This document shows, piece by piece, positions 48,856 through 56,718 of a stretch of 57,084 nt of DNA. Location of the stretch: positions 1 through 57,084 of the IMG/VR virus record IMGVR_UViG_3300010262_000001; one strand, 5' to 3'. How positions within the stretch are numbered: position 1 is the first letter of the stretch; each line of letters begins with the position of its first letter. Source of the stretch: a virus. The notes under the pieces are model-generated. The model saw only the letters and a program-made list of their open reading frames with translations. It had not been told where the DNA came from and made no database searches. A program made the position numbers and the translations under genes.

Positions 48856-49110
48856 CTATACATTACCATTTAATATATTATCAACTTCACTCAAAGTCTC
48901 ATCATCAGGTATATTAAGGACATTTTCCTTAGTTTCTTTTTCATAGCTTTTTTCTAAATTTTCTTTTTCTTGGATTTTTATTTTCTTTGTGTCTGAATTT
49001 ATCAAATAAGTTACATAAGCGCTAAAATCAAATCCCAGCTCAGCAGCTCTTCTTAATCCTCGCTTTAATATAGCTTCTTCTAAACTTAAATTTCTCTTAA
49101 TTTTTGCCAA
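48856..49110 (-). CDS. parR: ParR-like RHH centromere-binding adaptor
   Basis: Immediately downstream of and overlapping parM; N-terminal AKIKRNLSLEEAILKRGLRRAAELGFDFSAYVTYLI RHH pattern; TTG start after GGGGTGAG SD. Confidence 0.5.
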   Translation of the reverse strand: MAKIKRNLSLEEAILKRGLRRAAELGFDFSAYVTYLINSDTKKIKIQEKENLEKSYEKETKENVLNIPDDETLSEVDNILNGNV

Positions 49111-49996
49111 ACTTACTCACCCCTAATGTGTAGAAAGCTTTAGCATTTGTATATATCGTATCTTTATCTAGTTTCTGTCCTAAATTGTTAGCTAATCTTA
49201 GAGAACCGCCACCTATCCATATACGTTTACTTACATTAAACTCTTTTATAGACTCTAGTCTATTTAATATAAGTCCAGTATGTTGTTTTAAAATTTTCTC
49301 TATTAAAGTATCTATTTCTACAGGATCACCTTTTATATATATAACCTGAGAATCAAGAAGATCATCTGCTCTAAGAACATCATAAGCAATACCGTGTTCA
49401 TTTTTAATTTCAGTAACTAAAGCTTTACCTAAAATGTTCATTCCAAGCTCAAAAGTTTCTAATTTTTTTAATTTTTTGTTGTTAAAATAAGCTACATCAA
49501 CTGTAAATCCACCTACATCTATTACACAAACATCTCCACGAAGCTTTTCAGGTTCTAATAGTAGCACACCTGCTGATTGCGGAAATACTATTACTTCTTT
49601 AATAGTAAAATGTTTTGGTTTACCATTTAATACTATATCTACACTTTTATCTTTTAACTCATTTATTAAAGAATCCTTTTGTGAGTTATAATAAGATGCT
49701 GGAAGTCCAGTTACTATTTTCACGTCATCATCAACAAATTGATCTTCTCCCATAGCCATTGCTACAGCTGTAAATAAACATAGTTTAAAGTTAAGAGAAT
49801 CAATTTTATTTACATTGTTATCATATAAGCTAGTATCACTATTTTCCCCTATTGTATAATCTTTTCCTTTGTACTGTACATGAATTGAATTGCATACATC
49901 TAAAATACCTTCTTGGATAGTGCTCTTAAAGTTTGAACCACCATTTTTTGTCCAAACTTTAGTATGAGAATATCCTACATCTACACCTATTTTCAT
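49097..49996 (-). CDS. parM: ParM/StbA-family actin-like plasmid segregation ATPase
   Basis: MKIGVDVGYSHTKV (phosphate 1), VIDVGGFTVDV (phosphate 2), IWIGGGS (adenosine) motifs; SD AAGGAGAG. Confidence 0.85.
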   Translation of the reverse strand: MKIGVDVGYSHTKVWTKNGGSNFKSTIQEGILDVCNSIHVQYKGKDYTIGENSDTSLYDNNVNKIDSLNFKLCLFTAVAMAMGEDQFVDDDVKIVTGLPASYYNSQKDSLINELKDKSVDIVLNGKPKHFTIKEVIVFPQSAGVLLLEPEKLRGDVCVIDVGGFTVDVAYFNNKKLKKLETFELGMNILGKALVTEIKNEHGIAYDVLRADDLLDSQVIYIKGDPVEIDTLIEKILKQHTGLILNRLESIKEFNVSKRIWIGGGSLRLANNLGQKLDKDTIYTNAKAFYTLGVSKFGKN

Positions 49997-50044
49997 AAAA
50001 ATCTCTCCTTAAATTGTGTTTAATAAATTATATGCCTATTATAT

Positions 50045-50181
50045 ACATATTGTGCGCATATTTTAAAGCTTTTTCTAAAAAAAATATTTTTATGCGCATA
50101 ATAGGTTTATATCATAAACATATTGTGCTTATATTTATATTCCAAAATGAATAGTATAAGCATATCATGCGCACAATATGT
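50045..50181. promoter_or_regulatory. parC-like centromere/operator repeats upstream of parM
   Basis: ACATATTGTGCGCA (50045-50058), ACATATTGTGCTTA (50118-50131), inverted perfect copy TGCGCACAATATGT (50168-50181), plus TATGCGCATAAT (50091-50102). Confidence 0.5.
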
Positions 50182-50331
50182 TTATATAGAATTTAAAGCT
50201 AATCGTATCCATTTTGCGATTAAGTCTCTATTACCTTTGTATTTTTTATAATTTTTATATTCTTTTTCAGTGACTCTAATACTAATTATTCTACTTAGTT
50301 TTTCATTATCAGGAACTTTTGGTAGAGTCAT
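50182..50331 (-). CDS. Small RHH-like protein, 49 aa (below ORF-track cutoff)
   Basis: ATG after GGGGGTG SD; MTLPKVPDNEKLSRIISIRVTEKEYKNYKKYKGNRDLIAKWIRLALNSI (SIRVTEKEY beta-strand/helix pattern). Confidence 0.45.
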   Translation of the reverse strand: MTLPKVPDNEKLSRIISIRVTEKEYKNYKKYKGNRDLIAKWIRLALNSI

Positions 50332-50769: not shown

Positions 50770-51720
50770 ATGTCAGAAAACGCTAGATCAGGTCAATTCA
50801 GAAAAAAGAAAGTCTACTTTACACAAGTAAGTAATGTAGCTTTAAGAGATCCTAAACTTAGTTTGAAAGCAAAAGGCCTATATGCTTTAATACAAAGTTA
50901 TCTTACAATAGAAGATTTTACTTTATATAAGAATACATTGAAGAAGCATCTTAAAGAAGGAGAGAAGGCTTTTGAAAACTCCTGGAAGGAACTAAAAGAT
51001 GCTGCATATCTAATTCAGTACAGAATGCAAGATCCAAAAACAAAACATTTTTACTATGAATATGAATTATTAGATGCTCCAGATGTAGAGCTAGCTAATA
51101 AAGTACATAGTTCTCAAAACAGAAAAAAACATGAAGAAAAAATCCATACCCCTAAAAAGGTAGGTATGGATAAAAAAGATGAAAAAAATAAAAAAGCCAT
51201 ACCTACCAAAAGGGAAGGTATGGATAATGGATATAATGGGAAAGTGGGGGTACATAATAATACTAATACTAATTATACTGACTTAAGTAATACTATGAGT
51301 AATAGTAGTAGTACGGAATCAATAGAGGATTTATATAAATTATTTGAAGAAACATTTGATAAGAAACCTTCTAGTTATATGAAAAATAAACTATTGAAAT
51401 TTATAGATCAAACCAACTTAAAATTTGTTGCTGAAGTTTTACTTTATTGTTCAGAGCATAATGCTAAAGCTCCATCTTACTTATTTAAAACTTTAGAAAA
51501 TTTAATAAACAGAAATATAACTACTATAAAATTATTTAAAGAATCAATTGAAGGTCATTATAAAGAATTAGAAAGTAAAAAGAAATCACAAAAAACAAAG
51601 ACTAATAAAGTGATATCAAGACCGGTGAACTTCACTCAAAGACCTTATACAAGTGAGGATTATTCTAAAATAGAACAAGAATGGCAAGAAGCCTTATGGG
51701 GAGATTCGATTTTCGAGTAA
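50770..51720 (+). CDS. rep: Plasmid replication initiator (N-terminal winged HTH, C-terminal DnaD/DnaB_2-like domain)
   Basis: YFTQVSNVALRDPKLSLKAKGLYALIQSY... wHTH; C-terminal LFEETFDKKPSSYMKNKLLKFID...AKAPSYLFKTLENL DnaD-like; strong SD GAGGAGG; adjacent to the DnaA boxes. Confidence 0.65.
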   Translation: MSENARSGQFRKKKVYFTQVSNVALRDPKLSLKAKGLYALIQSYLTIEDFTLYKNTLKKHLKEGEKAFENSWKELKDAAYLIQYRMQDPKTKHFYYEYELLDAPDVELANKVHSSQNRKKHEEKIHTPKKVGMDKKDEKNKKAIPTKREGMDNGYNGKVGVHNNTNTNYTDLSNTMSNSSSTESIEDLYKLFEETFDKKPSSYMKNKLLKFIDQTNLKFVAEVLLYCSEHNAKAPSYLFKTLENLINRNITTIKLFKESIEGHYKELESKKKSQKTKTNKVISRPVNFTQRPYTSEDYSKIEQEWQEALWGDSIFE

Positions 51721-51738: not shown

Positions 51739-51882
51739 GTGTAGCAATTTTTAAATTCTTACATAGTATGTACTATAAGCAATGCTAACAATGCAGAGAA
51801 AGATGAAATAAGTTTTATATGCTTACTAAAGCAATCTTTTTAAAGTTGATCTTTGAGATGCAATGTGTAGCAAAGTTTAAAT
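51739..51882. repeat. Two direct 18-nt repeats GTGTAGCAA(TT/AG)TTTAAAT 126 bp apart
   Basis: 51739-51756 and 51865-51882; the second lies about 20 nt before the next gene's SD. Confidence 0.6.
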
Positions 51883-51903: not shown

Positions 51904-52077
51904 ATGGCTACTCGACTTGTTATATCAGTAGAATTTTCAAAAGGTAAAACAGAAGAATTACAGCTCTATGCTAGACTAAAAGAATTTTCAGCACCAGGAG
52001 CTACTATTAAAGATATCCTAAAAGGAAATTTACCTTTATCAATATTAAATTCTCAGGAGGATGATTGTAATGAATAA
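51904..52077 (+). CDS. Small RHH-like protein, 57 aa (below ORF-track cutoff)
   Basis: SD GGAGGA; MATRLVISVEFSKGKTEELQLYARLKEFSAPGATIKDILKG (beta-strand then helices). Confidence 0.4.
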   Translation: MATRLVISVEFSKGKTEELQLYARLKEFSAPGATIKDILKGNLPLSILNSQEDDCNE

Positions 52078-52651
52078 AATGAATTTCAAAACTTTTTTAG
52101 AACTTTTACCAAATTCAGAGGATTATTTTAAAACAACATTCGAAAAGATCAATAGTGAAAAGGAAATCGAAGAAAAAGTTAACAGAGAAACCGAAAGCTT
52201 AGAGGATTACAATGAAACTTATATGAGAATAGCTAAAGAAGTTATTGGAAATAAGAAAAGAGAAAGAATGGCTGAAAGTTTAGAGTGCTTTGCAGATGCT
52301 TTAGGATTAGAAATTAGCAGTATATATTCTAGTGACTATAAGAAAGTAGACTTTAAAATCAAAGAATTTGATAACAATATAAGTTTAGATGAAATTGATA
52401 GTGATGAAATATATAAAGAGTTGGATAAAATCTTTACTAATATTTTTAATAAAGGTAAATTAACATTCCCAAACTTGTTAACCAATAGATTTTTTGATAA
52501 CTACTTACTAAAACCTTTAAGTGACGTTCTATATCTTTATGAGTTTAGAAGAGAATCTGTTGAGAACTTAACCTTTGAAAATGTAATAACTCTTATTTTA
52601 AGAGAATATTTTAAAAGTTTTATATCAGAGATTAGATTTTATTCAGTATAA
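52070..52651 (+). CDS. Hypothetical protein (193 aa)
   Basis: ATG 52070 after AGGAGGA SD; no motif recognised. Confidence 0.55.
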   Translation: MNKMNFKTFLELLPNSEDYFKTTFEKINSEKEIEEKVNRETESLEDYNETYMRIAKEVIGNKKRERMAESLECFADALGLEISSIYSSDYKKVDFKIKEFDNNISLDEIDSDEIYKELDKIFTNIFNKGKLTFPNLLTNRFFDNYLLKPLSDVLYLYEFRRESVENLTFENVITLILREYFKSFISEIRFYSV

Positions 52652-52770
52652 TGTTTGAGTTGAGTTAATAATAGTTTTAAATAATAAGGTCAATTTTTAA
52701 CTAATGAAAATTGACCTAGTTAACTCACTATGTATATTTTTGAAGGAACTATACATTGGAGGAATTAGTA

Positions 52771-53229
52771 ATGTTGGAAATTAGTATTACAAGTAATTAT
52801 CAAACTTCCTATAAGTATGAGCATAAAAAAAGTAATAAAAAAAAGTTTAATAGCATGTTTTTATTACCTACACTTTTAAATTTAGGGAATGATACTATAG
52901 AAAAGACAACAGAAGTGGTTGAACAGGTACAAGAAATTGATAAAGGTGTTTTAGAAACTATAGCTGAATTTTGTACAACTACTACAAAATTTATTAAAGA
53001 TACGATCTGGTGTTTTCAGAATCCAATTAACGTTCTTGTAATCATTCTAGAATGGATGGCTCCATTAATGTTTACATTTGCAACCATTGTACCAATAATA
53101 GGACTAACTTGTTTAGTCTGTAAAACTCCTAAGTTAGCATTTTGGAGTACTAAAGAGCTAATAGTTAGTCCTTTTATAATCTACATTATATATATAGTAA
53201 CTACATTGGCTTTAAAATCAATTATTTAA
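52771..53229 (+). CDS. Membrane protein, paralogue A (shared N-terminal leader with 53398-53850)
   Basis: MLEISITSNYQTSYKYEHKKSNKK versus MEISIIKNHKTVYKYSSKEKKN; TM helices WMAPLMFTFATIVPIIGLTCLVC and LIVSPFIIYIIYIVTTLAL; ATG after GGAGGA SD. Confidence 0.6.
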   Translation: MLEISITSNYQTSYKYEHKKSNKKKFNSMFLLPTLLNLGNDTIEKTTEVVEQVQEIDKGVLETIAEFCTTTTKFIKDTIWCFQNPINVLVIILEWMAPLMFTFATIVPIIGLTCLVCKTPKLAFWSTKELIVSPFIIYIIYIVTTLALKSII

Positions 53230-53306
53230 AATAAAAATCTTACAATTTCATATCCAACACCAGCAGCTAAACCTACTAGTAAATCAACTAAACCAAATCC
53301 TAGCAT
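53226..53306 (-). CDS. 26-aa hydrophobic peptide (type I toxin-like), convergent with the paralogue A gene
   Basis: GAGGTGA SD then ATG; MLGFGLVDLLVGLAAGVGYEIVRFLF; its 3' end overlaps the stop of 52771-53229 by 4 nt. Confidence 0.4.
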   Translation of the reverse strand: MLGFGLVDLLVGLAAGVGYEIVRFLF

Positions 53307-53397
53307 TATAATCACCTCACTTGAATTTTAGTATGTATTTTAGTGTGTGTAGTTTAATTAGGATTTATGCATATTAGAAATAATTTGGAGGTTTAAT

Positions 53398-53850
53398 ATG
53401 GAAATCAGTATTATTAAGAACCATAAGACTGTTTATAAATATAGTTCAAAGGAAAAGAAAAATCTAAATAATTTTGCAGGAAAGGTACTTAAAGATAAAA
53501 AATTAAGAACATATGTATGTTTAACATTAGCTAGTACAGCTATAATAACTGGTTTTACTGTTAAAGAAGTTTTATATCCAACATTAGCTACATGCAATGC
53601 TACGCTTGGTGGAGCAACAACAACGATTAGAAATGTAATGGATGAAGTTGTCAGCTTTGCTAAAGTTGTTCTAATAGGTATGGTTGTATTTAATACAATT
53701 TTGGGAGTGGGCCAAACAATTTGGAAGAGAGCTGGCGCTAACCTTTCTTACGAAGAGATATTTGGCATATTAATAAAAAACCTAGCAATACTTACATGCG
53801 GGTTAGCAGTTGATAAGATTTGCTGGTGGCTATACTCAATGCTAAAGTAG
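53398..53850 (+). CDS. Membrane protein, paralogue B
   Basis: Same N-terminal leader motif; three TM helices (TYVCLTLASTAIITGFTV, VVLIGMVVFNTILGVG, LAILTCGLAVDKICWWL); SD GGAGGT. Confidence 0.6.
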   Translation: MEISIIKNHKTVYKYSSKEKKNLNNFAGKVLKDKKLRTYVCLTLASTAIITGFTVKEVLYPTLATCNATLGGATTTIRNVMDEVVSFAKVVLIGMVVFNTILGVGQTIWKRAGANLSYEEIFGILIKNLAILTCGLAVDKICWWLYSMLK

Positions 53851-53865
53851 GAGGTTGAATATAGC

Positions 53866-56109
53866 ATGAAAAAGATTGTTAGGTTTAATAAAAGAGATTA
53901 TATATACTTACAAGTTACTCCAATAATAGGTCTAAGAAACTATAATAATAAAGATTTAGCAGCTAATATAAATAGATCTATTTTAAGTTTGTCAAAGTTG
54001 GAGAAAGTATACAATGATGAGACTGATAAATTTGACCATTTAAAAATAAATGGATTTGCAAATATTAGCTATATATTGAGACTTTCTAAAAAAGATACTA
54101 GATTTATTTTTAAAGTTCCTGAGGAAATTTCTAAACAATTTGCAAGCAAACTTCAAGAAACCTTTAAAGACTCTCTTATTACAGAAGTTGAGTTTAAAGA
54201 AAAAGACCTAAAGTTTAAAAAATGGTTAGCTTACAAAAATGAAGATCCATTAAGCTTGCATGTAGATAGCAGGCAACAAGAACTTATTAATAATCTCATT
54301 GAAAATATAGAGATGCTAGATGAAAGTGAATTTATAGAAGTTAAATTAGACTTTTTTAAAATTGGCAGGGTAGGGAAAATCCAATTTCAAGATTATATTA
54401 AATGTACGGAAAAAAAAATAAAAAATAGAGAAAGTGTTAGGATGTCGGATGGCATCGTTGCTGGAATCAGCGGAGCATTGCTAAACACGGGGAAAGAAAT
54501 GGTTAATGCTCTACTAATGACTAAGAAAGATAGTGTTAATAAGTTTACGGAAATAGCTTATGCATTAACTAACCAGGAAGAATTTAAGCTTACTAAAGCT
54601 ACTTTAGATAAGAAAAAGAGTGATGTTGTTAGGGTAGCTATACAAGTATCTAGTAGTAATAAAAAAGCTTTAGAAAGTACTATAAGCTCATTTACATTAT
54701 TGGATGAAGATAATGCTTTAGTACCTAAAAAGAATTTTAGAGACAATATAATGAGCGTTCAAGAAGCTGGACAATTAATTCAACTATGTGGCAACTCTGA
54801 GCTTATGGATAAATACAATATAGACTACCTAAAGCATAAAGAAATAAAAGTGCCTGCTGAAATATTGAAAGGTAGTATACCTATTGGTACATGTTCTTAT
54901 AGAAATAGCAAACAAAATATTTATCTTTCTGATGACGGATCTAATAAATTTTTACCTACTGTTTATACTGGACCTACTAGAAGTGGTAAAACAACTCTTA
55001 TACAAAACACTATATATAATGCTATAAAAAATGGAGATAGTGTAATATTCTTTGACTTTATAGAAACTTGCAGAGCAAGTAATGAAATCTTAGAAGTAAT
55101 TCCTAAAGAAAAAGTAACAATAATAAACCTGGCCCAAAAAGTTGAAGGGCTTGATTTTAATGAAATAAAAATGAGTGAAAATCTAGAACCTAAGCAAAAA
55201 TATAAAATGTTAAAATTAAAATCGAATGGAATACTCGCTTTGGTAGACTCCTGCAATTTGACAAATGATGAAGAACTTAAGAGTCAAATGAGGAAAATAT
55301 TAATGAGTATTACTTTAATTGCTATGTCTCAAGATAAAACTTTCAAGGTAGCGATTGATGCTTTACAGGACCATATCTTAAGAAAGAAACTTATAAATGA
55401 TATTCCAGAAGATTTAAAACCTTATTTAAATGACAGTGTCTATAATATAAAAGCTTTAGATGAGAAAAGTAAAAGTAATGGAGCTATAACTGGCACTAAA
55501 ACACACCTGGTTAATTCTATACTAAATAGACTTTATTCTTTGCAAATGAATGAATCACTTGAAGAAATGCTTAATACAGATAGCAAAAATAATGTGAATT
55601 TAATAGATGAGATGCAAAAGGGTAAGTTTATAGTAATCCAAATACCAGATTCTATAGCTAGTACAAATCCAGAAAAAGATATTATATGCAGCTATTATTT
55701 TAATAAAGTTTGGTTCGCCCTACAACAAAGAGCAGAGATAATGGATGATTCTAAAAAGAAAAGATTACTATTAATAGTTGATGAGATCTATCAGCTTGAA
55801 AATACTGAAATTCTATTTAAGCAAAGAATAAATCAGATTGCTAAATATTATTGTAAGTTTATAGTTAGTTGCCATGGTATAAGTCAAATAAGTAATCTAA
55901 AGAAAGAATTATTAACAGCTGATGCTAGTTATGTACTAATTTCTGGTACAGATGAAAGTTGTCTTAAAGACTTAGGGACAAGATTTAAAGATTATACAGC
56001 ACAAGATTTAGACAATCTTAAACAATACCATGCTTTGTGCAGCATAAAGACAAGATCCAACGGATATGTACAATGCATAACAAAGTTACCGCCTTCATTA
56101 AAAAAATAG
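53866..56109 (+). CDS. Large P-loop NTPase (FtsK-HerA / VirB4 / coupling-protein-like superfamily; subfamily unresolved)
   Basis: Walker A YTGPTRSGKTT about residue 370; Walker B LLLIVDEIYQL about residue 640; no N-terminal TM segment; SD AGGAGGT. Confidence 0.6.
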   Translation: MKKIVRFNKRDYIYLQVTPIIGLRNYNNKDLAANINRSILSLSKLEKVYNDETDKFDHLKINGFANISYILRLSKKDTRFIFKVPEEISKQFASKLQETFKDSLITEVEFKEKDLKFKKWLAYKNEDPLSLHVDSRQQELINNLIENIEMLDESEFIEVKLDFFKIGRVGKIQFQDYIKCTEKKIKNRESVRMSDGIVAGISGALLNTGKEMVNALLMTKKDSVNKFTEIAYALTNQEEFKLTKATLDKKKSDVVRVAIQVSSSNKKALESTISSFTLLDEDNALVPKKNFRDNIMSVQEAGQLIQLCGNSELMDKYNIDYLKHKEIKVPAEILKGSIPIGTCSYRNSKQNIYLSDDGSNKFLPTVYTGPTRSGKTTLIQNTIYNAIKNGDSVIFFDFIETCRASNEILEVIPKEKVTIINLAQKVEGLDFNEIKMSENLEPKQKYKMLKLKSNGILALVDSCNLTNDEELKSQMRKILMSITLIAMSQDKTFKVAIDALQDHILRKKLINDIPEDLKPYLNDSVYNIKALDEKSKSNGAITGTKTHLVNSILNRLYSLQMNESLEEMLNTDSKNNVNLIDEMQKGKFIVIQIPDSIASTNPEKDIICSYYFNKVWFALQQRAEIMDDSKKKRLLLIVDEIYQLENTEILFKQRINQIAKYYCKFIVSCHGISQISNLKKELLTADASYVLISGTDESCLKDLGTRFKDYTAQDLDNLKQYHALCSIKTRSNGYVQCITKLPPSLKK

Positions 56110-56127
56110 AATGAATTTTAATGAAAT

Positions 56128-56158
56128 ATGGAACATTCTCCACTGTGAGGCATATAAT
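56128..56158 (+). promoter_or_regulatory. Promoter-like element carrying a copy of the immunity operator core
   Basis: CACTGTGAGG (56141-56150) is identical to the 10-mer at 1241-1250; TATAAT at 56153-56158. Confidence 0.45.
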
Positions 56159-56284
56159 GGCATTACGAGTAATGCTTAAGGGCGCGAGCCATAGGCTTTA
56201 ATAAAAGACTTTAAAACAAGTAATAATTAGTTATAAAAGAAACATAAACCATTAAAATTTTAAAAAAATATAGAGGTGATTTAT

Positions 56285-56602
56285 ATGGAAAAATATTTAA
56301 TCGACATTACAAATAAAGTTGAAAAATACGTTGGGGATGAACTTGGAAACTTATTAGAATATATATTAAATAGTGATATATTTTTTGGCAGAATAAGGTC
56401 TCACATTATATGCTACGAAAATAATAAATGGTATGGAATGTTAGAGATCACTAGCAAAACTGATTTAGAAAATATAAAAAATAAAACTTTGCTTAATAGC
56501 AAAATAGTAAGAGTAGAGCCATTCTCTAAGAGAGCATATAAAATAAATATAGAGAAAAACTATGAGCAAGAAAAGTTTCTTAAAGAAATAGGTCTTTATT
56601 AA
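56285..56602 (+). CDS. Hypothetical protein (105 aa)
   Basis: ATG 56285 after AGAGGTGA SD; followed by terminators. Confidence 0.5.
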   Translation: MEKYLIDITNKVEKYVGDELGNLLEYILNSDIFFGRIRSHIICYENNKWYGMLEITSKTDLENIKNKTLLNSKIVRVEPFSKRAYKINIEKNYEQEKFLKEIGLY

Positions 56603-56687: not shown

Positions 56688-56718
56688 TAAAAGTGAGTGT
56701 TGCAGCGCTCACTTTTTT
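56688..56718 (+). terminator. Intrinsic terminator
   Basis: AAAGTGAG..CTCACTTT stem plus T-run; preceded by a weaker ATTCAT..ATGAAT hairpin with T7. Confidence 0.75.

Follow-up and report, generated by a model that had tools for sequence, protein, structure and literature searches.

In this study we have analysed a cluster of six genes at positions 51904–56602 of a viral genome of 57,084 nucleotides (IMG/VR record IMGVR_UViG_3300010262_000001; this whole stretch of DNA is called the window in the following). The locus represents, in a Clostridium perfringens phage-plasmid, a conserved module of phages for which the genes 31, 31.1, 31.2, and 32 of phage SPP1 serve as prototype. A first reading of the DNA, made from the sequence alone (the sequence-only reading), had described the cluster as an unexplained module on a phage-plasmid. 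The nature of the element is confirmed by the genes for terminase, portal, capsid/major head, tape measure, and endolysin, which are all found in the window together with the genes for ParM and a DnaD-like Rep protein. The module itself is not a puzzle confined to phage-plasmids: it is the widespread module of SPP1 genes 31–32, SPO1 27.4, and Tyrovirus gp11–18, and a translocon has already been suggested for its SPP1 members (PMC6316719). We think that the module is probably a stripped-down inner-membrane translocation engine derived from a type IV secretion system (T4SS). The explanation as a whole, namely a T4SS-derived translocation module with a role in sporulation for the viral DNA, is put forward tentatively.

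The gene that connects the locus to the phages is the largest of the cluster (positions 53866–56109, plus strand). It encodes a soluble two-domain ATPase of 747 amino acids (aa), whose residues 2–734 align to the positions 18–760 of the 824 positions of the PHROG 5156 profile (E = 3e-69). SPP1 gp32 and SPO1 gp27.4 match the same profile with E values of 1e-288 and 0, respectively, and we have hardly any doubt that the window ATPase and SPP1 gp32 belong to one family, with only ∼20–24% identity between the window protein and the Bacillus phage copies. An exhaustive profile search yielded 1362 representative relatives of the ATPase (208 at E ≤ 1e-30); among the best 150 relatives listed most are proteins of 750–850 aa that match from end to end, the remainder being shorter fragments. 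When 22 diverse members are aligned (alignment A2), the residues G374 and K375 of Walker A, D639 and E640 of Walker B, and two arginines are invariant. Both motifs lie in the C-terminal half, as had been read from the sequence (GPTRSGKTT, residues 369–377, positions 54970–54996, and LLLIVDEIY, residues 634–642, positions 55765–55791, both plus strand), and the protein is indeed devoid of a hydrophobic segment resembling a transmembrane (TM) helix. In addition, structural matches spanning the whole ATPase were found in BFVD with JL gp150 and phage G gp156 (E 1e-35 to 1e-31).

Using three members of the ATPase family as tblastn queries (from the window, PBC5, and SPO1), we could link the locus to phages of small and medium size (phiCp-D, Terrisporobacter phage TPDSL_ph2, PBC5, TP-84, D6E, GBK2, SPP1 with gene 32, and Basilisk), to large phages, SPO1-like ones and others (SPO1 with 27.4, JL, CP-51, SP-10, Tsamsa and other Tyroviruses, 0305phi8-36, and phage G), and to plasmids of C. 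botulinum, C. tetani, C. butyricum, and the B. cereus group. The carriers of the module comprise strictly lytic phages, integrating prophages, and plasmids. At the nucleotide level, a search of the phage collection with the locus gave no match; in the viral contig search (ATPase alignment A1) one near-identical contig was found. Across the module region, the window is 92–95% identical to two circular C. perfringens plasmids of 56 kb, which are both classified as non-mobilizable by MOB-suite.

The gene order is conserved as well. In at least 20 loci three small genes are found upstream of the ATPase gene. The first of these codes for a protein of 50–95 aa with a strand–helix–helix pattern. The type 1 gene codes for a protein of 120–190 aa whose N-terminus is charged and is followed by a hydrophobic leader, in many cases with an AxA-like sequence at its end, and by a two-TM domain of ∼75 aa. 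The type 2 gene, which is usual but not universal, codes for a protein of 77–105 aa with two C-terminal TM helices. An ATPase gene following genes for small membrane proteins and for a protein resembling ribbon–helix–helix (RHH) proteins is present in the window and in the loci L002, L004–L010, L012–L014, L017, and L020–L025. The conservation of the gene neighbourhood, the mapping of which had been proposed for phage-plasmids, reaches beyond this type of element. The order RHH, type 1, type 2, ATPase is found in SPP1, phiCp-D, the plasmids of C. botulinum and C. tetani, the Terrisporobacter phages, and a phage contig of ∼200 kb. In the lineage of the window the order of the membrane protein genes is reversed, type 2 preceding type 1, and both proteins carry an N-terminal tag which is described below.

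As related modules have already been treated in two publications, the window locus is not a new system; it belongs, as a divergent member, to a kind that is known but uncharacterised. Godinho et al. (2018; PMC6316719) described SPP1 gp32 as similar to TrwB, VirB4, and FtsK and considered a possible translocon with gp31.1 and gp31.2; in SPP1 the module genes are early, and gp32 and gp31.2 are non-essential. In the Tyroviruses the region was described as plasmid-like and is considered plasmid-derived (PMC9703825). To our knowledge from the searches made, the present analysis adds that the clostridial phage-plasmid locus is united with the SPP1, SPO1, and Tyrovirus modules, and it also adds the pilin-like assignment, the shared N-terminal tag, and the restriction to spore formers.

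The fold of the ATPase was assessed with an AlphaFold model (pLDDT 73) that was compared to the PDB using Foldseek. The best full-length match is TrwK/VirB4 of the R388 T4SS (8rtd/7o41, E = 3e-11). TrwB is matched with a TM-score of ∼0.6 when normalised to TrwB and the C-terminal domain of VirB4 (4ag5) with a TM-score of 0.6; HerA and the C-terminal domain of DndH were also matched, and FtsK ranks below TrwB, VirB4, and HerA. In the model an N-terminal α/β domain (residues ∼1–350) is followed by a C-terminal P-loop domain of the VirB4/TrwB/HerA class, which contains an all-helical insert (residues ∼440–585) between Walker A and Walker B. The ATPase is thus predicted to be a distinct clade of the VirB4/VirD4/HerA class. 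Its soluble two-domain layout is VirB4-like, although the N-terminal domain aligns with TrwK chains only at a non-significant E of ∼0.04. At the sequence level TrwB_AAD_bind of Pfam is matched by 6 of the 22 family members (best E 2.3e-6) and weakly by the window ATPase (E = 0.16), which in addition scores 21 bits against TIGR03743 at a cut-off of 366; a faint match to TraD was also seen. The window ATPase and the 22 family members do not match the VirB4 models CagE_TrbE_VirB and AAA_10 in Pfam and NCBIfam, nor do the window protein and the family members match the SpoIIIE/FtsK models of Pfam. Searches of PDB sequences with the ATPase, either singly or as a profile, gave matches at the level of the P-loop only.

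The annotations of the homologues vary. Some are labelled 'T4SS DNA-binding domain protein' by PGAP, and the label 'MsbA/lipid A export' on several phage homologues is a mis-annotation. The homologue of phiCp-D (L005, 4965–7380) is annotated as two overlapping coding sequences, one of 179 aa ('lipid A export ATP-binding/permease') and one of 631 aa ('coupling protein'), which suggests a frameshift or a sequencing error.

Upstream of the ATPase gene two membrane proteins are encoded on the plus strand, m152 (positions 52771–53229, 152 aa, type 2) and m150 (positions 53398–53850, 150 aa, type 1). The sequence-only reading had noted that they share an N-terminal segment followed by two to three TM helices, and this is borne out: 13 of 27 residues of the segment are identical, BLASTP gives E = 7e-5 for the pair, and two to three hydrophobic helices are present in each protein. 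In m152 the tag (MLEISI...YKY...KK) precedes TM helices at residues ∼99–117 and ∼130–148 at the C-terminal end, and in m150 the tag (MEISI..N..YKY..K) is followed by a long basic leader, a hydrophobic segment, and a two-TM domain of ∼78 aa. In the phage contig L002 (81 kb), the ATPase of which is 57% identical, both orthologues carry the tag as well (MVEISIHSNY... and MEISIFRNNSKVFDYKSKK...). Because both orthologue pairs retain the tag, a chance match was rejected as its source, and the conservation indicates that the tag is under selection. The tag-coding stretches of the two genes are close over the first ∼17 bases and then diverge without a long identical run (one alignment, judged by eye), so that a recent gene conversion of the tag looks unlikely. 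Beyond ∼27 residues the similarity of m152 and m150 ends; hhalign reports a probability of 17% which covers the tag only, and controls comparing type 1 with type 2 proteins gave at most 4%. Thus, the two proteins can be called paralogous, as had been proposed, with respect to the 27-aa tag but not with respect to their membrane parts, which judging from these alignments are two different families. Related N-terminal motifs (MKILING..., MIVKINGE..., MDIKINGQ...) are found at the start of type-1 or type-2 proteins elsewhere, and we suspect that the tag is a cytoplasmic docking peptide.

The link of m150 to the pilins was made in two steps. According to hydropathy and alignment, m150 consists of a long leader, which is predicted to be cleaved, and a mature domain of ∼70–80 aa with two TM helices. 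With hhalign the group of m150 matches the clostridial type-1 group (71.5%, E 3.6e-5), and the latter matches the type-1 group of Bacillus and pCLK (91%, E 1e-6); an enlarged set of clostridial and window sequences matches the Bacillus group over the 75 columns of the mature domain (65%, E 5.9e-5). The type-1 copy of C. botulinum pCLK is annotated as TrbC/VirB2 and scores 28.5 bits against TrbC of Pfam (gathering score 27.9), and the type-1 protein of PBC5 and SPO1 gp29.1 give weak matches to T4SS_pilin. The direct comparison of m150 and its close relatives with TrbC and T4SS_pilin of Pfam yielded no match at E ≤ 1. These alignments lend moderate support to m150 being a divergent member of the TrbC/VirB2-like family. 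As to m152, its C-terminal part has a topology like SPP1 gp31.2 and shows the pattern 'NP-TM-G.K-TM', and an orthologue is present in L002; by position and size alone, m152 would stand at the place of VirB3.

On pCLK (L015, 108421–112002), one of the large neurotoxin plasmids, the TrbC/VirB2-annotated gene is accompanied by an ATPase of the family, which is 28% identical to the PBC5 copy over the full length, and by a protein of 197 aa. The N-terminus of the latter resembles Replic_Relax proteins, yet without a Pfam match.

In T4SS operons the genes are arranged in the order virB2–virB3–virB4. The module resembles this arrangement (for example, TrwL–TrwM–TrwK of R388) in its order of a pilin-type protein, a small membrane protein, and a large soluble two-domain ATPase. 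The sequence-only reading had considered VirB2/VirB3-like proteins beside a VirB4- or coupling-type ATPase, and had proposed profile and structure searches for their assignment; these led the ATPase to the TrwK/VirB4, TrwB, and HerA fold and m150 to TrbC-type proteins. The T4SS-like interpretation is therefore partly supported, by the fold class of the ATPase, the pilin-type link of m150, and the order of the genes, with VirB3 assigned by position. In comparison with a T4SS core the module lacks VirB1, VirB5, VirB6, VirB8–VirB11, VirD4, and a relaxase, and it is encoded by viruses, including lytic ones. With the coupling proteins TrwB, VirD4, TraG, and TraD the ATPase shares a C-terminal domain superposing on TrwB, the all-helical insert between Walker A and B, and a Walker A motif resembling the VirD4 type. 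In contrast, coupling proteins have an N-terminal TM anchor where the window ATPase has a soluble α/β domain of 350 aa, the window module has no relaxosome partner, and the scores are far below the curated cut-offs. Compared with the SPP1 module (gp31, gp31.1, gp31.2, and gp32; also SPO1 gp29.1 and gp27.4, Tyrovirus gp11–18, and phage G gp156), the full-length ATPase without TM helices is of the same family, and a small RHH-like protein encoded upstream, a leader-bearing two-TM protein, and a second small two-TM protein are likewise common to both. The window differs in the reversed order of type 2 and type 1, in the tag on both proteins, and in the insertion of p193 and an antisense open reading frame (ORF).

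Reduced DNA transfer machines are known from the archaeal Ced and Ted systems and from TraB/Spd of Streptomyces, which combine an ATPase of the FtsK/HerA/VirB4 class with few membrane or pilin-like proteins and do without a relaxase. To the module these systems are analogies; TraB is anchored in the membrane by a part of its own and recognises clt repeats, and Ced contains the polytopic VirB6-like CedA, for which the module has no counterpart. SpoIIIE, which moves the chromosome into the forespore as is proposed here for the viral DNA, and FtsK belong to the same ATPase superfamily; SpoIIIE differs in possessing its own four-TM anchor and a gamma domain, and the window ATPase gave no SpoIIIE/FtsK match in Pfam.

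Two rival explanations follow from the likeness to T4SS. In the first, the module would be a minimal conjugation-like or spreading apparatus which brings the phage-plasmid DNA to neighbour or sister cells, in some lineages with the help of a Replic_Relax nuclease; TraB of Streptomyces and the archaeal Ced system would be its nearest analogues. The T4SS-type fold of the ATPase and the TrbC/VirB2-like protein agree with such a function, as does a Replic_Relax protein (PF13814, E 3e-12 to 3e-18) that is encoded directly 3′ of the ATPase gene in SPO1, JL, and PJN02. A copy with a TrbC-annotated neighbour resides on the large pCLK-type plasmids of C. botulinum, a type reported to be conjugative. 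In addition, the Tyrovirus region is considered to derive from a plasmid (PMC9703825). On the other hand, neither the window nor the clostridial versions of the module contain a Replic_Relax gene. The module of the window has only two small membrane proteins, none of the size of VirB6, and has no VirB8 and no dedicated hydrolase; among the module proteins, to which the scan was confined, no relaxase domain of Pfam was found. The sequence-only reading had correctly noted that a relaxase, a VirB6-like channel, and a hydrolase are absent beside these genes, and the near-identical plasmids are typed as non-mobilizable. Moreover, a conjugation role is hard to reconcile with the presence of the module in the strictly lytic SPP1 and SPO1-like phages, which kill the host. 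We consider this role quite unlikely.

The second of these explanations is the export of a protein or filament: VirB4-like dislocation of the pilin would result in a short surface structure or in a secreted phage factor that alters the envelope or cell–cell contacts. In Agrobacterium the dislocation of VirB2 depends on VirB4, and the virB2–virB3–virB4-like order, the leader-bearing pilin-like protein, and TrwK/VirB4 as best full-length structural match could be read in this way. Nevertheless, the match of the N-terminal domain of the ATPase to VirB4 is not significant, a platform of VirB5/VirB6 is missing, the sequence matches favour TrwB_AAD_bind over the VirB4 families, and the presence of a conserved RHH partner of DNA-binding type suggests that DNA is what is moved. 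Export is in our opinion very unlikely.

For the translocation engine we suggest the following mechanism. The ATPase, presumably a hexamer, would be recruited to the membrane by m150 and m152, for which the short cytoplasmic tag at their N-termini may serve, and would spend ATP on moving a substrate across the membrane. Most probably, this substrate would be the DNA of the phage or plasmid, with the RHH protein as its mark. That the proteins form a complex, that DNA is moved, and that this happens in sporulation is what we infer from the relationships described above and from the distribution of the module among the hosts.

With the three ATPase queries 47, 89, and 146 phage records were found, and all but one stem from hosts that form endospores (Bacillus, Geobacillus, Lysinibacillus, Brevibacillus, Alicyclobacillus, Clostridium, and Terrisporobacter). 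The sole exception is a record of 80 kb (L019, MT362618.1, 'Microcystis phage MaeS') that contains a Bacillus-type module of RHH protein, pilin-like protein, and ATPase; the cyanobacterial host given for it may deserve checking. Full-length matches on plasmids are confined to Clostridium, Bacillus, and Alicyclobacillus. As a control, RecT of the same element was found in 405 records, among them 70 Staphylococcus and 34 Streptococcus phages.

The module is also linked to plasmid partition. The genes of ParM and an RHH protein adjoin it in the window, phiCp-D, PJN02 (Zhangjivirus), JL, and SPO1, so that the linkage extends to strictly lytic SPO1-like phages, and ParM is likewise found next to the module in the Tyroviruses (PMC9703825). 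In the window the ParM/StbA-type actin-like partition ATPase (PHROG 691, E 4e-47) is encoded on the minus strand at positions 49097–49996. Just upstream of the divergent parM lies a cluster of ∼20-bp repeats in both orientations (core ATATTGTGCGCAT / ATGCGCACAATAT, positions 50037–50190), which from its sequence looks like the parC centromere for an RHH-type ParR encoded at 48856–49110 on the minus strand. In SPO1 (L018, 88981–99266), JL (L011), and PJN02 (L007), that is, in strictly lytic SPO1-like phages and in Zhangjivirus/Tyrovirus phages, a plasmid-like block is observed which contains the pilin-like gene, ParM, an RHH protein, small membrane proteins, the ATPase, and the Replic_Relax (PF13814) protein. 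Virospores are known from SPO1, and a helping role in the entrapment has been suggested for its ParM gene 27.9 (PMC12991052).

Owing to the restriction to endospore formers, the dispensability for the lytic growth of SPP1, and the linkage to ParM/ParR, we favour a role at the forespore. Among the alternatives named in the sequence-only reading, a translocase acting for the forespore is the one that fits best to the host distribution. It is possible, though doubtful, that the module serves a sporulation-linked delivery of DNA by which the viral genome is brought to or kept in the forespore, as in virospores and in the inheritance of plasmid prophages. A more specific version appears rather doubtful to us: the module would be a DNA translocation device of viruses, derived from a T4SS and special to endospore formers, in which ParM/ParR positions the DNA at the pole, the RHH protein marks it, and the ATPase, docked on the membrane, moves or retains it across the sporulation septum or from the mother cell to the forespore.

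Several points weigh against the translocation engine and its role at the forespore. Integrating prophages carry the module at a typical position of lysogen-expressed morons, and since integrated prophages reach the spore with the chromosome anyway, the forespore idea is weakened. A module without VirB6, VirB8, hydrolase, and relaxase does not account for a passage through the cell wall or across a further membrane. The host restriction was deduced from collections of cultured phages and of plasmids, the 1362 metagenomic relatives bearing no host labels. The N-terminal 355 residues of the ATPase, when modelled alone (pLDDT 65), have no fold match at E ≤ 1e-3: the top match is an ESX-3 chain (E = 0.0095), the sole long alignments are to TrwK chains (E = 0.035–0.05, probability 0.6–0.7), and many small ferredoxin-like domains were also obtained. 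For m152 the comparison with proteins of the SPP1 gp31.2 type gave only 3.5–4.3% in hhalign (E ∼ 0.01) at a plausible register, values that do not support homology. The RHH fold of p57 is recognised from its pattern alone, as searches of Pfam and PDB sequences gave no match. Finally, literature searches on the function of gp31.1, gp31.2, and gp32 found the genome paper of 2018 only, and no experiment is known for a member of the family.

The position of the module in lysogens leads to a different explanation, superinfection exclusion or defence, in which membrane proteins made early or from the prophage would, together with the ATPase, block or expel foreign DNA at the membrane. In the Terrisporobacter-type integrating prophages the module is found at the moron position between the lysis cassette and the integrase/repressor genes, in the phage-plasmid it borders the repressor region, and in SPP1 the genes are early and non-essential (PMC6316719). 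In addition, the ATPase domain matches mad8 (PADLOC, E 1e-16), and HerA and DndH-type defence ATPases are among its fold matches. Within the scanned region (51904–56602), PADLOC matches the ATPase domain alone and none of the other five module proteins, and a MADS defence system was therefore rejected; the preprint on MADS describes no domains for mad8. Exclusion would leave the conserved RHH protein, the pilin-like partner, and the ParM linkage unexplained, and also the restriction to spore formers, as exclusion is needed in all hosts. We regard it as unlikely.

SPP1 packages its DNA by a headful mechanism, and therefore the DNA that enters the cell first varies. This argues against the idea that the module is an aid for genome entry, that is, an early membrane motor which pulls the rest of the infecting genome inside. 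Furthermore, the position of the module is not tied to a genome end in the plasmid prophages, which are maintained as circles, or in the integrating prophages. The early expression in SPP1 and the classification of the ATPase as a DNA translocase speak for this idea, but the module genes are non-essential in SPP1 (PMC6316719), and we consider it extremely improbable.

Returning to the translocation engine, the protein proposed to mark its substrate is p57 (positions 51904–52077, plus strand), a small acidic protein with an RHH-like strand–helix–helix pattern that opens the module. A small protein with this pattern is found at the same position in phiCp-D, L002, and the plasmids of C. botulinum and C. 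tetani as well as in PBC5, SPP1 (gp31), and the Terrisporobacter-type prophages (alignment A6); a profile of the RHH proteins found nothing meaningful in the PDB. Just upstream of p57, GTGTAGCAA occurs twice, at 51739–51747 and 51865–51873 and 126 nt apart, each time inside a direct repeat of 21 nt; the window contains no further copy. By chance 0.33 copies are expected, and two copies were reached in 4 of 100 shuffles. The spacing is the same in two close relatives, and one copy is present upstream of the phiCp-D homologue. Given their location, these repeats are a candidate operator for p57.

The other genes of the cluster are less conserved. The soluble acidic protein p193 (positions 52070–52651, plus strand; 196 aa with the alternative start 52061) is present in L016 (95% identity) and has a partial homologue in phiCp-D (37% over 76 aa, E 5e-6). 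Because the close relative NZ_CP148603 lacks p193, we assign it, on this comparison of sequences, to the accessory genes outside the conserved module. In NZ_CP148603 the place of p105 (positions 56285–56602, plus strand; 108 aa with the alternative start 56276) is occupied by a coiled-coil protein of 227 aa, to whose N-terminus p105 is 60% identical over 96 aa. The genes downstream of the ATPase in other lineages are unrelated, and p105 is probably a truncated version of a gene that varies at this place rather than a conserved part of the module. Searches with p57, p193, m152, m150, and p105 in Pfam, NCBIfam, PHROG, and PADLOC gave nothing usable, and matches of the small module proteins to geobacillin-26, stanniocalcin, and a deaminase were dismissed as noise. 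In the gap between the two membrane protein genes an antisense ORF of 26 codons (MLGFGLVDLLVGLAAGVGYEIVRFLF, positions 53226–53306, minus strand) is found, which is hydrophobic, preceded by GAGGTGA, and conserved in NZ_CP148603 except for one substitution. In phiCp-D (L005, 4126–4200), a similar antisense ORF of 24 aa precedes the pilin-like gene. The ORF may code for a type I toxin-like peptide or a small membrane partner, and its membership in the module is uncertain.

The window has a GC content of ∼30% and a siphovirus-type gene set. All six plus-strand ORFs that had been listed for the cluster are present, each start being preceded by a ribosome-binding site of the GGAGG type, and they do lie downstream of rep, as the gene with the DnaD domain (positions 50770–51720) precedes them. 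For m152 we prefer as start the ATG at 52771, which is preceded by GGAGG and agrees with the annotated orthologue in a related plasmid, instead of the TTG at 52756 given in the ORF listing. A hairpin (GGTCAATTTT...AAAATTGACC, positions 52689–52717) is located 3′ of p193 and overlaps a promoter-like site (52711–52738), and a strong terminator-like hairpin follows p105 (56689–56716). These elements suggest that p57–p193 and m152–ATPase(–p105) may form separate transcription units. Elsewhere in the window, at 17367–18515, an IS200/IS605-type OrfB/TnpB-like transposase is encoded (PHROG 506, E 3e-115); the 81-kb contig L002 has a similar gene in the neighbourhood of the module.

Carriers of the module include SPP1 and SPO1, which are among the most thoroughly studied Bacillus phages, as well as the jumbo phage G, the Tyroviruses of the anthrax group, and both plasmids and phage-plasmids from C. 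perfringens, C. botulinum, and C. tetani. By recognising one family with a pilin-like partner, a near confinement to spore formers in the collections of cultured phages and plasmids, and a frequent linkage to ParM, a gap in the annotation becomes a testable form of the old question of how phage genomes enter spores and survive in them. If the device at the septum is real, it would be the missing active mechanism of virospore formation in SPO1 and SPP1 and of the inheritance of clostridial phage-plasmids through the spore. Should the module instead serve exclusion or the spread from cell to cell, this would be a new job for a virus-encoded minimal T4SS core. For C. perfringens and C. botulinum the question is relevant to the persistence of phage-plasmids during sporulation in food and in the gut.

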